Positions 35,647 to 38,358 of a DNA stretch of 38,711 bases are shown here, in pieces. The notes below the pieces were generated by a model that was not told where the DNA came from, did not search any database, and saw only the letters and a program-made list of their open reading frames with translations. Made by a program: the position numbers and the translations under genes. Within the stretch, counting starts at the first letter, position 1, and each line of letters opens with the position of its first letter. Source of the stretch: an uncultured Gammaproteobacteria bacterium (GTDB lineage: Bacteria; Patescibacteriota; Patescibacteriia; Patescibacteriales; GWC2-42-12); NCBI GenBank assembly GCA_964560005.1, contig CAZLKB010000003.1, positions 1-38,711 on the forward strand, given 5' to 3'.

Positions 35647-36141
35647 ATGCCAATTTTAAAGATAATTACCCAGCCTAACCCTACTTTAAGAAAAAAATCC
35701 AAAGACATAAACCTTAAAGAAATCGACTCCCGAGAATTCAGGGGGTTGATTTCATCAATGGCGAAAACCATGATTGAAACCGACGGCGTCGGCTTGGCGG
35801 CTCCGCAAATAGGTAAAAATATAAAATTAGCCGTTATAAATTCCAAAGACGGGCCTTTCTGCTTGATCAACCCGAAGATTATAAGAAAATCCTGGGCAAA
35901 AGAACTAGACCAAGAAGGCTGTCTTTCTATCCCGGGAGTTTTTGGCAAGGTGAAAAGGTCAAAAAATATTACCTTGGTTTATTATGACCGGCTGGGAAAA
36001 AAGATCAAGCAAAGCGTTAAAGGACTGATGGCCAGGGTAATGCAGCATGAAATTGATCACTTGGATGGAATCTTGTTTATTGATAAAGCGGTGGAGATTG
36101 AAAATGCAAAGTCTAAATCTCAAAATGAAAAAGTTGCCTAA
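35647..36141 (+). CDS. def: Peptide deformylase
   Basis: GVGLAAPQ, EGCLS and HEIDH motifs. Confidence 0.98.
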   Translation: MPILKIITQPNPTLRKKSKDINLKEIDSREFRGLISSMAKTMIETDGVGLAAPQIGKNIKLAVINSKDGPFCLINPKIIRKSWAKELDQEGCLSIPGVFGKVKRSKNITLVYYDRLGKKIKQSVKGLMARVMQHEIDHLDGILFIDKAVEIENAKSKSQNEKVA

Positions 36142-36142
36142 T

Positions 36143-37078
36143 ATGGATAAAACAAAAATCATCTTTATCGGCACTTCCGCTTTCGGTTTGCCGGTTTTTA
36201 ATGCCCTGGCTGAAAATGAAGATTTCAACATAGTCTTAGCTATCACCCAGCCCGATAAGCCGTCCGGCCGAAAACAAATTATTATTTCCCCGCCGATTAA
36301 AACAGCGGCTGAAAAAAATAATATTACCGTCTTGCAGCCGGAGCATATTATTGACATTAAAGAAAAGATTGCCATGCTAAAGCCTGGCCTGATAGTAGTC
36401 GTCGCCTATGCCCAGCTGATTCCGGAGGAAATCCTGAATATTCCCGAATTCGGCTGCCTTAATCTGCACGCTTCACTGTTGCCGAAATATCGCGGCGCCG
36501 CCATTATTCAGGCCGCGATTTTAAACGGGGATGAAAAAACCGGACTTACCATAATTAAAATGGACAAAGGTTTTGATACCGGTCCGATTTTAGCGCAAAC
36601 ATCAATTAATATCGGCCAAAACGACACCGCCGGCAGCCTTTACGCCAAATTATCGGAAATCAGCGCCGATTTTTTCCTTGATGCCGCTAAACAATATTTA
36701 AACGGTAAAATCACTCCTCAACCGCAAGACCATTTAAAAGCCGGCTATGTGAAAACTTTGGCGAAAAGCGACGGTCTGATAGATTGGCAAAAACCGGCCG
36801 AAGCCTTAGAAAGATTTATCAGAGCGATGTCGCCCTGGCCGGTTGGCTGGACCTGGTGGCAAGGCAAGCAATTAAAAATAATTTCCGTGCAAAGCCAGCC
36901 GATTGAAATTAACTCATATAAACCCGGTAAAACTTTTAAATATAACAGCGGCTTAGCCGTGCAATGCGGTAAAAACGCACTTATTATAAAAAAACTTCAG
37001 CTTGAAGGCAGAACGGAATTGGAGAGCGAAGCCTTTTTAAGAGGGCAAAAAGATTTCATCGGCGGCATCTTGGGTTGA
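36143..37078 (+). CDS. fmt: Methionyl-tRNA formyltransferase (start re-called at 36143)
   Basis: 'IIFIGTSAF', 'TQPDKPSGR', 'NLHASLLPKYRGAA' and 'FDTGPI'. Starts right after the def stop. Confidence 0.97.
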   Translation: MDKTKIIFIGTSAFGLPVFNALAENEDFNIVLAITQPDKPSGRKQIIISPPIKTAAEKNNITVLQPEHIIDIKEKIAMLKPGLIVVVAYAQLIPEEILNIPEFGCLNLHASLLPKYRGAAIIQAAILNGDEKTGLTIIKMDKGFDTGPILAQTSINIGQNDTAGSLYAKLSEISADFFLDAAKQYLNGKITPQPQDHLKAGYVKTLAKSDGLIDWQKPAEALERFIRAMSPWPVGWTWWQGKQLKIISVQSQPIEINSYKPGKTFKYNSGLAVQCGKNALIIKKLQLEGRTELESEAFLRGQKDFIGGILG

Positions 37079-37173: not shown

Positions 37174-37358
37174 GAAGCGAAAATTAAACAAAGCGCCCGC
37201 ACATTATTCATATGCGGACGCTCCAATCCCCATGCATTGCTATTATTCGTATTCAATACTTATAACAGCAGACATTCGTTGAGACACAGACTAATCCATA
37301 TCTCAACTCTAATTTCAGTCTAGAGCCAGCGTCGTAAATCAGTCAAGAGGAGAAACTA

Positions 37359-37388
37359 TTGATAAGTAGCGATATTTATGTGTATAAT
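37359..37388 (+). promoter_or_regulatory. Sigma70 promoter for the tRNA
   Basis: TTGATA-18 nt-TATAAT. Confidence 0.5.
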
Positions 37389-37410: not shown

Positions 37411-37482
37411 GCCGAATTCGTCTAGTGGCTAGGACACATGGTTCTCATCCATGAAACACGGGTCCGATTCCCGTATTCGGTA
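37411..37482 (+). tRNA. tRNA-Glu, anticodon CUC, no encoded CCA
   Basis: Acceptor GCCGAAT/ATTCGGT, D arm GTC..GAC, anticodon arm CATGG-TTCTCAT-CCATG, T arm ACGGG-TCCGATT-CCCGT. Confidence 0.95.
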
Positions 37483-37493
37483 CAAAATCAAAC

Positions 37494-37522
37494 TTGACAA
37501 AAAAATTTATTTAATCTAGTCT
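37494..37522 (+). promoter_or_regulatory. Sigma70 promoter for a leaderless leader peptide
   Basis: TTGACA-17 nt-TAGTCT, ending 6 nt before ATG 37529. Confidence 0.65.
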
Positions 37523-37528
37523 AAAAAC

Positions 37529-37603
37529 ATGAACAACCAATCGATAAAAACGATAAAGAGCGATTTTAGCATGATGAAAAGCCTGAAGATGTCCTGCGGC
37601 TAG
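37529..37603 (+). CDS. Putative leader peptide, 24 aa (MNNQSIKTIKSDFSMMKSLKMSCG)
   Basis: Translated by hand. The stop codon overlaps the 5' arm of an antiterminator-like helix. Confidence 0.55.
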   Translation: MNNQSIKTIKSDFSMMKSLKMSCG

Positions 37604-37664
37604 GGTTGTCTTAAATTATTTGCCAATTTAAAACAGCCCTATGCCAAAGGACTGTTTTTTGTTT
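37601..37664 (+). terminator. Overlapping antiterminator/terminator (attenuator-like)
   Basis: 37601-37617 pairs with 37625-37641. Alternatively 37630-37640 pairs with 37648-37659, followed by a T tract. Confidence 0.7.
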
Positions 37665-37761
37665 ATCGTCTGACTAATTTGATTTTTGACTGGTATTCGC
37701 AATGGTTTTGCGCCGCTTGGCGCTGATTGCGAGTAGCAATAAAAATCAAACCACAAGAGCT

Positions 37762-37944
37762 ATGACAACGAATCCGGAAAATCTGACGCACGCGGCAAAG
37801 GTGACCTGCAGCAATATTGATTGCTCAATTCGCCTGCCGGCTGAAAAAATGATCCACGATGGACACGGCACCTACTTTTGCTCTACGGACTGCCGAAAAA
37901 GGCAAATCAGAGTGGCCAGGCGGGAAAGTTCCGCCCGCAACTAA
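37762..37944 (+). CDS. Small Cys/His metal-binding protein, TRASH/YHS-like (start re-called at 37762)
   Basis: 'CSNIDC...YFCSTDCR' pattern, an A/C-rich leader and its own terminator. Confidence 0.65.
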   Translation: MTTNPENLTHAAKVTCSNIDCSIRLPAEKMIHDGHGTYFCSTDCRKRQIRVARRESSARN

Positions 37945-37953
37945 TTGCCTCCA

Positions 37954-38005
37954 GGGGAGTGAAGACGCGAAAAGTGACATTCTCGACTTTACTCCCCCTT
38001 TTTTT
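37954..38005. terminator. Terminator between convergent genes
   Basis: GGGGAGTGAAG/CTTTACTCCCC stem plus T tract. Confidence 0.75.
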
Positions 38006-38019
38006 ATTTAATATAAAAT

Positions 38020-38358
38020 TTATAAAAATCGAGCGAGAATTATTAAAGAAATAATTGCCAGGCTTATCCCGATGATTTCAATAAAAGATATTTTTTCTTT
38101 AAAATAAAAAACACTTACTAAAGTCAATAATACAACACAACTGACTGCATACAAAACGCCAAGAGTAGAAAGTTTTACTTTTCTCATTAAAAAAAACCAA
38201 CCGAATGCCGTGAGTCCGTAAATAATTGCCCCGCAAATTAAGGCTTGCCAACCAGAAAAACCGTTTTGTAGCGAGGCATGCTTAATGAAAACATCGGCAA
38301 GAACGGTTATGGCGCTTAATCCTATTCCAATTAGGAAAACAATTAATATTGTATTCAT
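38020..38358 (-). CDS. Small DMT/SMR-superfamily membrane transporter
   Basis: 112 aa, four TM helices, 'S.YFKEKIS....IGI.L' ending. Confidence 0.8.
   Translation of the reverse strand: MNTILIVFLIGIGLSAITVLADVFIKHASLQNGFSGWQALICGAIIYGLTAFGWFFLMRKVKLSTLGVLYAVSCVVLLTLVSVFYFKEKISFIEIIGISLAIISLIILARFL

Follow-up and report, generated by a model that had tools for sequence, protein, structure and literature searches.

Does the segment at 37494-37664 encode a leader-peptide attenuator, and, if so, which amino acid does it sense and why does it stand in front of a small gene whose product contains four cysteines? The segment lies in a stretch of 38,711 nucleotides (hereafter, the window), which is the start of a 266-kb contig from a patescibacterial genome of 1.14 Mb (97.6% complete). 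A first-pass annotation of this DNA had described a complete attenuator with a leaderless 24-codon open reading frame (ORF), in which the supply of methionyl- or cysteinyl-tRNA, or else a stalling ligand, would control the downstream gene. The comparison with related loci indicates that the segment probably belongs to a conserved family of leaderless, Met-codon leader-peptide transcription attenuators of the candidate phyla radiation (CPR)/Patescibacteria. There is strong comparative evidence for a Met-sensing attenuator whose ancestral job would be to switch on the salvage of methionine from S-adenosyl-L-methionine (SAM). Judged by its sequence and its relatives, the window holds an orphaned and weakened copy of this device before a swappable small gene, the mechanistic steps being inferred.

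Organization of the leader locus

The promoter, the spacing to the ATG, the 24-codon ORF, the long helix and the overlapping terminator hairpin that had been annotated were all recovered base for base. The leader promoter (37494-37522, forward strand, as are all the elements of this locus) is made of a -35 hexamer TTGACA (37494-37499), a 17-nt spacer and a -10 hexamer TAGTCT (37517-37522), and six nucleotides (AAAAAC) separate the latter from the ATG at 37529. This ATG opens an ORF of 24 codons followed by TAG at 37601-37603 (37529-37603; peptide MNNQSIKTIKSDFSMMKSLKMSCG). The regulatory Met codons of the ORF are found in tandem at 37571-37576 and as a single codon at 37589-37591.

The TAG stop supplies the first three bases of segment A (37601-37617), the putative 5' arm of an antiterminator. 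Segment B (37625-37641) is common to two alternative hairpins, since it can pair with A to form the antiterminator or with segment C to form the terminator. The A:B helix contains 15 Watson-Crick pairs, one G-U pair (37606/37636) and one C/A mismatch (37610/37632), and it is lengthened by three G-C pairs between GGC at 37598-37600 and GCC at 37643-37645. The terminator-like hairpin B:C (37630-37664) pairs 37630-37640 with 37648-37658, carries a C/A mismatch at 37637/37651 and is followed by T6-G-T3. A possible segment 1 (AACAACC, 37532-37538), complementary to GGUUGUU of stem A, is tentative: the segment 1:A duplex was calculated at -8.2 kcal/mol for the window, with values down to -13.6 kcal/mol among relatives, and 11 to 723 of 1000 shuffled sequences were as good.

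When the 287-nt leader region was folded, a z-score of -6.2 was obtained and none of 200 shuffles was as good. The extended A:B hairpin alone gave -21.1 kcal/mol (z = -5.1). For the terminator alone, -8.1 to -8.5 kcal/mol was calculated (z = -2.5; 4 of 200 shuffles as good), and a simple terminator scan did not flag it. This weakness is due to the C/A mismatch. The leader sequence was identical in contigs from two sludge metagenome runs, so that it is not an assembly artefact.

A predicted leaderless start

No Shine-Dalgarno (SD) sequence precedes the leader ATG, and a -10 element ending 6 nt before this codon implies that the predicted messenger is leaderless. The frequency of such arrangements was estimated by a census of the window's genome, in which long ORFs were compared with random ATGs, the start calls being crude. 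A TAnnnT motif ending 5-8 nt before the first ATG was present for 22% of the long ORFs versus 9% of the random ATGs. With a -35 hexamer of at least 5/6 matches in addition, the values were 2.8% and 0.22%, respectively, an enrichment of about 13-fold. An SD-like motif was observed before the first ATG in only about 8% of the long ORFs. Leaderless initiation looks ordinary for the organism on the basis of these counts, and the layout of the leader backs the idea of routine leaderless translation in the lineage. The leaderless start of the first-pass annotation is also favored by the comparative evidence that follows.

Conservation of the probable attenuator in close relatives

A DNA search of 60 relatives identified homologues of the leader in each of the four remaining species of the genus (G001-G004) and in one sister genus (G009). 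A covariance model of the leaders found was then applied to 316 genomes of the order; nothing else strong was detected, with one weak but genuine match in another family (G046). Furthermore, a scan of metagenomes with a pattern for the A, B and C segments only gave three new loci (L167, L169 and L170). As this pattern specified nothing but the hairpin segments, the Met runs present at these loci are independent of ascertainment. The three-block pattern was specific on metagenomes, and a looser two-block pattern used on genome contigs returned mostly chance matches among the matches listed.

The promoter, the leaderless ATG, segments A, B and C and a Met run, here of 5-8 codons, are all kept at eight further loci. 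The promoter TTGA(C/T)N-17-TAnnnT was present in all ten tabulated leaders, seven of which have exactly 6 nt between the -10 element and the ATG. Within the nine close loci, the window included, the motif narrows to TTGAC(A/T/G)-17-TAnnnT, with exactly 6 nt in six of them. The 6-nt spacing was also found in the G046 leader, behind TTGATT, and, where flanks were read in other lineages, in G066 and G067 (TTGCAA-17-TAAAGT-6-ATG) and in G030 and G070 (TTGACT-17-TATTAT-6-ATG).

In the close loci the ORFs comprise 23-32 codons and seven of nine begin with MNN, MNS or MNK. The consensus of the Met run is MMMSMMM, and the 5-8 Met codons of the relatives compare with three in the window. In all nine loci, exactly three codons (9 nt) separate the last Met codon from the first base of A. 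The stop codon lies 11-13 nt into A in the eight relatives and at the first base of A in the window.

Segment A is nearly invariant in the relatives and the A:B helix is kept in all the close loci (93.5% paired cells). The helices A:B and B:C exclude each other and are about equally stable in seven of the eight close relatives, both between -15 and -19 kcal/mol; the terminator of these seven has a perfect 8-bp GC-rich stem and was flagged by the scan. The eighth, G004, has five Met codons and a terminator that is also weak (-8.3 kcal/mol). The attenuation geometry that had been proposed from a single sequence was thus borne out at eight further loci by the fixed 9-nt distance from Met codon to A and by a stop placed in or at A.

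A SAM hydrolase-like gene behind leaders of the same design

The nature of the amino acid sensed is best approached through the genes that follow such leaders outside the window's family. The protein encoded downstream of the G046 leader matched the Pfam family SAM_HAT_C above the cut-off, as did its aligned homologues (six of six members, best E-value 4.6e-8), and weak NCBIfam matches to (R)-S-adenosyl-L-methionine hydrolase were also obtained; a search of the PDB with the profile gave no sequence match. The enzyme of this family (DUF62; SAM hydroxide adenosyltransferase-like) is known to convert SAM and water into adenosine and L-methionine.

In a search of the order, the SAM hydrolase-like protein was found in ten genomes belonging to five families. 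Of the nine full-length homologues within the order, seven have a clear Met-run ORF with a terminator directly 5' and one more is preceded by a version with two Met codons; MTKTLLTNPGLMMMRP, MDIIQQKTMMLMMMCRGGRGCVLSC, MNITQQKMMMPMMMMTSTGGGCVFSA and MSFVFNFQKSSLTMMAMMMKLPGKAGFKFI are examples of these leader peptides. Elsewhere in the class, for which 401 genomes were sampled, such leaders precede five of the eight closest homologues. Across lineages the leader peptides share the Met run only, and the stems differ in sequence while their arrangement is kept. In 20 of 21 leaders the Met run ends 7-14 nt before A, with the stop in or at A, and in 12 of the 21 the A:B duplex was equalled by at most 1 of 1000 shuffles. 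Complements analogous to segment 1 are present in the leaders of other lineages as well. At several loci only 8-17 nt separate the T tract from the ATG of the SAM hydrolase-like gene. This gap leaves no room for a promoter of its own, so that the enzyme would be expressed by read-through only.

The presence of leaders of the same design before a Met-releasing gene argues for the sensing of Met-tRNA. Hence the earlier proposal of Met or Cys sensing is supported for Met, on account of the runs in relatives and of the Met-releasing target, and not for Cys, which is represented by a single codon that in the relatives belongs to the GGTTGT of stem A. Attenuation over a non-biosynthetic gene in a presumed auxotroph had been called unusual. 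The gene downstream in the window is indeed not one that supplies Met; the arrangement becomes sensible, however, when it is seen as control of salvage rather than of biosynthesis.

A deviating case was observed at locus L178 (G314:C15), where the ORF 5' of a SAM hydrolase-like gene carries AAT AAT AAT ACT AAT AAT ACT (NNNTNNT) instead of Met codons and no clear terminator was seen. It is either a decayed leader or one of different codon specificity.

State of the window's copy

The attenuator of the window had been described as complete. The comparison corrects this description, since this copy ranks as the weakest in the family, with three Met codons, a mismatched terminator and a longer antiterminator. 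Its Met-run region reads ATG ATG AAA AGC CTG AAG ATG, three of the six core Met codons being replaced. Three of 23 non-start codons encode Met, to be compared with a Met frequency of 1.7% in the genome (p ~0.01, a binomial estimate). By Met content the ORF is not outstanding in its own genome, and its significance derives from the relatives. Elsewhere in this genome, no second Met-rich leader ORF followed by a terminator was conspicuous, and there is thus no sign of a Met regulon.

Because of a 1-nt deletion in segment A, the ancestral TAA is no longer in frame; a change from CAG to TAG has created a fresh stop whose T is the first base of A. In the helix, T37601 pairs with A37641, giving a U-A pair in the window where six relatives have C-G, with a compensating G-to-A change in B. 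The relocation of the stop together with this base change suggests that the copy is still under selection. The copy has retained the 9-nt spacing, the two adjacent Met codons and the layout of the promoter. The attenuator of the window probably terminates weakly and is biased to read-through, and we estimate that it still responds, with a high basal level.

The cargo position and the second hairpin

In the window's family, the leader belongs to a frame consisting of tRNA-Glu, leader, a second hairpin (hairpin 2), one small gene and a kept terminator. None of the 25 genomes of the family has a SAM_HAT_C match over the cut-off, and tblastn detected no SAM hydrolase remnants downstream of any leader in the family. 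Instead of this enzyme, different small proteins are encoded. A protein of 57-62 amino acids with four cysteines (Cys4) is found in the window, in G002 and in the metagenome contig L167; a mutually related family of 115-176 amino acids, otherwise without assignment, occupies the position in G001, G003, G004, L169 and L170; and a 54-amino-acid Lys/Glu-rich ORF is present in G009. A search of PHROGs gave no match for any cargo protein. We also considered the 115-176 amino acid cargo as a truncated SAM hydrolase domain, and this candidate was rejected (BLASTP E-value 0.28; hhalign probability 0.08%).

In the window, the Cys4 gene (37762-37944; 60 amino acids) is the sole gene within reach of read-through. 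It is followed by a strong closing terminator (37954-38005; arms 37954-71 and 37980-97, then T7; -22.6 kcal/mol, z = -4.4), beyond which the next genes lie on the opposite strand. The same closing hairpin sequence stands behind unrelated cargo genes in G002, G003, G004 and L167. When loci L030, L031, L032 and L167 were compared with 37762-38005 of the window, the cargo was seen to be replaced and the flanks kept, the terminator reading GGGGAGTGAA.ACGCG...TCACTCCCC-T7. From this comparison the cargo position looks like a gene-swap slot. The Cys4 gene is lineage-specific, swappable cargo and not the ancestral target.

Hairpin 2 (37678-37750) is a rod-like stem-loop of 73 nt located between the attenuator and the gene (-32.5 kcal/mol, z = -5.8). 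It could be aligned in eight loci (the window, L029, L030, L031, L032, L167, L169 and L170), where it measures 73-90 nt and follows the scheme TTTGATTT..TCGTAAT..(GC hairpin)..ATTGCGxGC..AAATCAA, with compensatory changes in 6 of 17 pairs. It always stands immediately 5' of whichever small gene follows, and a similar element was seen by eye in G009. No Rfam match was obtained for it. The idea that hairpin 2 and the leader form a repeat or a miniature inverted-repeat transposable element (MITE) was discarded, as the genome contains no second copy.

A search between the attenuator terminator and the gene for a sense-strand promoter-like site, which would have made the gene independent of the leader, found none in the window, G002 or G009. 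The cargo consequently appears to depend on read-through.

Two further observations concern locus L030 (G002:C35). At about 560-800, the interval from the tRNA to the leader promoter contains three repeats of the tRNA's 3' end (GTTCCCCGTGGGGCTAC) at a spacing of about 108 nt, which look like attachment-site (att) scars of integration and excision at the tRNA. At about 1020-1180, between the attenuator terminator and hairpin 2, an insertion of about 150 nt is present in G002 only; it is palindromic and MITE-like, and its core is a perfect hairpin of 18 bp. Outside the family, near-perfect hairpins of about 30 bp or more were observed between the terminator and the SAM hydrolase-like gene at L175 and L176 (G066, G067) and at L177 (G058); the design may thus repeatedly include a second hairpin 3' of the attenuator.

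The 60-amino-acid Cys4 protein

The cysteines of the window's protein are spaced C-x4-C-x18-C-x3-C, and all four are kept in the three orthologues, those of G002 and L167 lying behind the same leader. The prediction of a four-Cys, 60-amino-acid protein was accurate. What speaks for metal binding is sub-threshold similarity to TRASH/YHS/FCS domains: matches to zf-FLZ, zf-FCS, the PP0621 family and L24e were obtained, the best being 17.9 bits for zf-FLZ (cut-off 23.4) and 20.8 bits for the PP0621 family (cut-off 45). A profile search of 1.8 billion representative proteins gave five matches, including three small proteins and a YHS-repeat protein, and a word-index search with the 60-amino-acid protein found nothing. 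The AlphaFold2 (AF2) model, with a pLDDT (predicted local distance difference test) score of 58.6, was too poor for fold comparison. The product resembles TRASH/YHS/FCS zinc-ribbons by its C-x4-C ... (Y/F)(F/Y)CS-x2-C spacing and by these weak family matches; it differs from them in that all its scores fall under the curated cut-offs and that its small homologues number only three among the 1.8 billion representatives. It can be considered a candidate TRASH/YHS-like zinc-ribbon.

Proposed mechanism and alternative explanations

According to the mechanism that we propose, transcription would start at or beside the AUG and a ribosome would translate the 24-codon frame. When Met-tRNA(Met) is plentiful, the ribosome would reach the stop and cover A, so that B pairs with C and transcription terminates. 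When Met-tRNA(Met) is scarce, a ribosome stalled on the Met codons would leave A free; A:B would then form and termination would not occur. The 9 nt between the last Met codon and A correspond to about one ribosome leading edge. The polymerase reading through would then pass hairpin 2 and enter the downstream gene. In its ancestral form, this logic would provide Met from SAM when charged Met-tRNA runs out. In the window's family, the attenuator would have been kept 3' of tRNA-Glu as the only recognizable promoter-plus-switch of the slot.

This last step may be carried further. The Met attenuator might have been co-opted as the starvation sensor of a slot for variable genes, whose small, fast-turnover proteins would be made only when Met-tRNA is low, hairpin 2 acting as a second regulatory RNA on the read-through transcript. 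We consider this extension rather doubtful. If it is true, low Met-tRNA may signal to an obligate auxotroph or episymbiont the loss of supply from its host or community.

Several points weigh against a functional Met attenuator in the window. The transcription start, the translation and the termination are all inferred from geometry and comparison; the sequence was found in DNA metagenome runs only, and no RNA run contains the leader. The -10 hexamer of the leader agrees with TATAAT at only three of six positions and was missed by the promoter scan. The terminator, at -8.5 kcal/mol, faces an antiterminator of -21.1 kcal/mol. With three Met codons, this weak terminator and the 3/6 hexamer, the copy may no longer be switching. 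Transcripts reading through from the tRNA promoter would carry an untranslated leader RNA, which would default to the antiterminator. The SD-like AAGAG of the 60-amino-acid gene (37755-37759) is only 2 nt from its ATG. The cargo varies between species, and the window's gene is without known methionine link. Finally, conservation of the codons and compensatory changes in relatives had been suggested as a check. The Met run is kept; formal analysis of A:B and B:C found one compensatory pair per helix, which was not significant against shuffle controls. The covariation is weak because the A, B and C stems hardly vary in the close set. The support comes from conservation and architecture, read from the sequences, and not from covariation statistics.

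Alternatively, the element could be a relic, that is, a descendant of a working Met attenuator which is now essentially constitutive for read-through and whose ORF is drifting. The window has the fewest Met codons of the nine close loci (3 vs 5-8), its terminator is at -8.5 kcal/mol where most relatives reach -15 to -19, its antiterminator is extended to -21.1 kcal/mol, the ancestral stop codon is lost and the ancestral target gene is missing from the family. On the other hand, drift does not readily account for a stop that has arisen precisely where A begins, matched by a compensating change in B, nor for the intact 9-nt spacing, tandem Met pair, -35 hexamer, 17-nt spacer and 6 nt to the ATG. 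Moreover, the terminator of G004 is likewise weak (-8.3 kcal/mol), yet five Met codons are kept there. In trpL, two Trp codons suffice. We regard the relic as unlikely. The ORF could instead encode a stand-alone micropeptide, for example a soft-metal-binding Met/Cys peptide acting together with the TRASH/YHS-like protein, with its own terminator and an incidental A:B pairing. Links to copper handling are known for Met-rich motifs as well as for YHS/TRASH domains, a YHS-repeat protein was among the matches of the profile search, and MNNQ and QGCF are kept within the genus. Outside the genus, however, the N- and C-termini of the peptide are unrelated and the Met run alone persists. QGCF is encoded by stem A and was lost in the window while the pairing was kept. 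Furthermore, the partner in other lineages is a SAM hydrolase-like gene and not a metal protein, and other species of the window's genus carry the unrelated 115-176 amino acid cargo. All this makes a functional micropeptide very improbable.

It could also be argued that the hairpins are the terminator region of the tRNA-Glu gene and that the 24-codon ORF is a chance frame, given that no terminator lies between the tRNA (37411-37483) and 37630-37664, that the tRNA is the kept upstream neighbour in the family and that the Met content of the ORF reaches only p ~0.01. We give this very little credence, as the same ORF-plus-switch occurs without an upstream tRNA at the SAM hydrolase-linked loci, a separate TTGAC-17-TAnnnT promoter is kept between the tRNA and the ATG, and the frame, the start codon and the Met run are kept in all relatives. 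The same low credence applies to a stall triggered by a ligand or an antibiotic acting on the nascent peptide (erm/msr-like) rather than by Met-tRNA supply, which had been entertained in the first-pass annotation. Resistance genes, too, are reported to be controlled by short leader ORFs with a terminator and an antiterminator; in the present loci the Met run apart, lineages share no arrest motif, the genes behind the leaders are not of the resistance type and the link to a Met-releasing enzyme points to Met. The sensing of Met-tRNA by a transcription attenuator is thus the explanation that we retain.

Flanking features

The tRNA-Glu(CUC) gene (37411-37483, forward strand) was identified by ARAGORN, by Rfam (tRNA, 59.4 bits) and by synteny. 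It is the kept 5' neighbour of the leader wherever the flank was read, namely in the window, G001-G004, G009 and the metagenome contig L170. A tRNA promoter-like site (TTGATA-18-TATAAT, 37359-37388, forward strand) was found by the promoter scan with 11 of 12 matches, and its block also lies upstream of the tRNA in L168, a near-identical metagenome copy of the G004 locus. Between this promoter and the attenuator, the scan revealed no terminator that would stop transcripts from the tRNA promoter.

Directly 5' of the tRNA/Met-leader locus are def and fmt (35647-37078), encoding peptide deformylase and Met-tRNA formyltransferase, respectively; fmt (36047-37078) occupies the same position in the relatives whose flank was read. 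This neighbourhood is suggestive, in that it would fit a leaderless sensor dependent on initiator Met. In the 330-nt gap between fmt and the tRNA promoter, there is an inverted repeat of 16 bp (37189-37225), rich in GC and followed by a T-rich tail; it is terminator-like on the reverse strand, although no minus-strand gene ends there. On the other side of the locus, a gene on the reverse strand (38020-38358), convergent with the 60-amino-acid gene, encodes a four-helix membrane protein of 112 amino acids with weak SMR/Qac-family matches (E-value about 3e-5, far under the cut-offs). A MurF-like gene lies beyond it.

Comparison with known systems

Leader-peptide attenuation is known for Trp, His, Leu, Thr, Phe and Ile/Val, and the control of Met genes is usually ascribed to SAM riboswitches, T-boxes or proteins of the MetJ/MtaR type. 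No description of a Met-codon leader-peptide attenuator was found in the literature searched, nor in Rfam.

Like SAM riboswitches (S-box and others) and Met T-boxes, the present device would switch Met/SAM genes by a choice between terminator and antiterminator. It differs from them in mode, as these RNAs sense SAM or uncharged tRNA directly through large conserved aptamers and without translation. With Rfam 15, only the tRNA was recognized in the window and nine related loci, without any SAM riboswitch or T-box, and a permissive Rfam scan of 37480-37780 returned chance-level matches only.

A second comparison is offered by the leaderless polycysteine short ORFs of mycobacteria (the 'Cys ribulon'), for which control of downstream genes by pausing at Cys codons is reported, stalled ribosomes opening a structure that hides the next ribosome-binding site; this is translational control (Canestrari et al., bioRxiv 10.1101/834739). 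Both systems have a sensory ORF at the 5' end of a leaderless mRNA (predicted in our case) and use the codons of one sulfur amino acid. In contrast, the amino acid is Cys there and Met here, where a single Cys codon is present; the phyla are unrelated; and the competing structure is here an intrinsic terminator, the SD region of the cargo gene (37755-37759) lying outside hairpin 2.

The device is found in ultra-small CPR genomes unable to make Met, where it is coupled to a SAM-cleaving enzyme. This suggests a direct monitoring of charged Met-tRNA by these cells, with SAM as the source from which Met is salvaged, and it offers a concrete, testable physiology for organisms with very few recognizable regulators. 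In the window's family the switch has outlived its target gene and now stands before an exchangeable slot, a natural reuse of a regulatory module.

The closest parallel remains with the classical leaders of trpL, hisL, leuL, thrL, pheL and ilv. In common with them, the present leaders have a short ORF with a run of the sensed codons, a terminator whose 5' arm is alternatively held in an antiterminator, a fixed spacing from codons to arm, and a stop placed so that an unstalled ribosome would mask the 5' arm of the antiterminator. The segment 1:2 pairing of the classical leaders is only tentative here, and the window's gene does not supply the amino acid sensed, whereas in other families the SAM hydrolase-like gene would do so. 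What is new relative to the classical leaders is the proposed sensing of Met, the apparently leaderless start of the mRNA, an ancestral target which is a salvage enzyme in an auxotroph and not a biosynthetic operon, and, in the window, a cargo unrelated to the amino acid.

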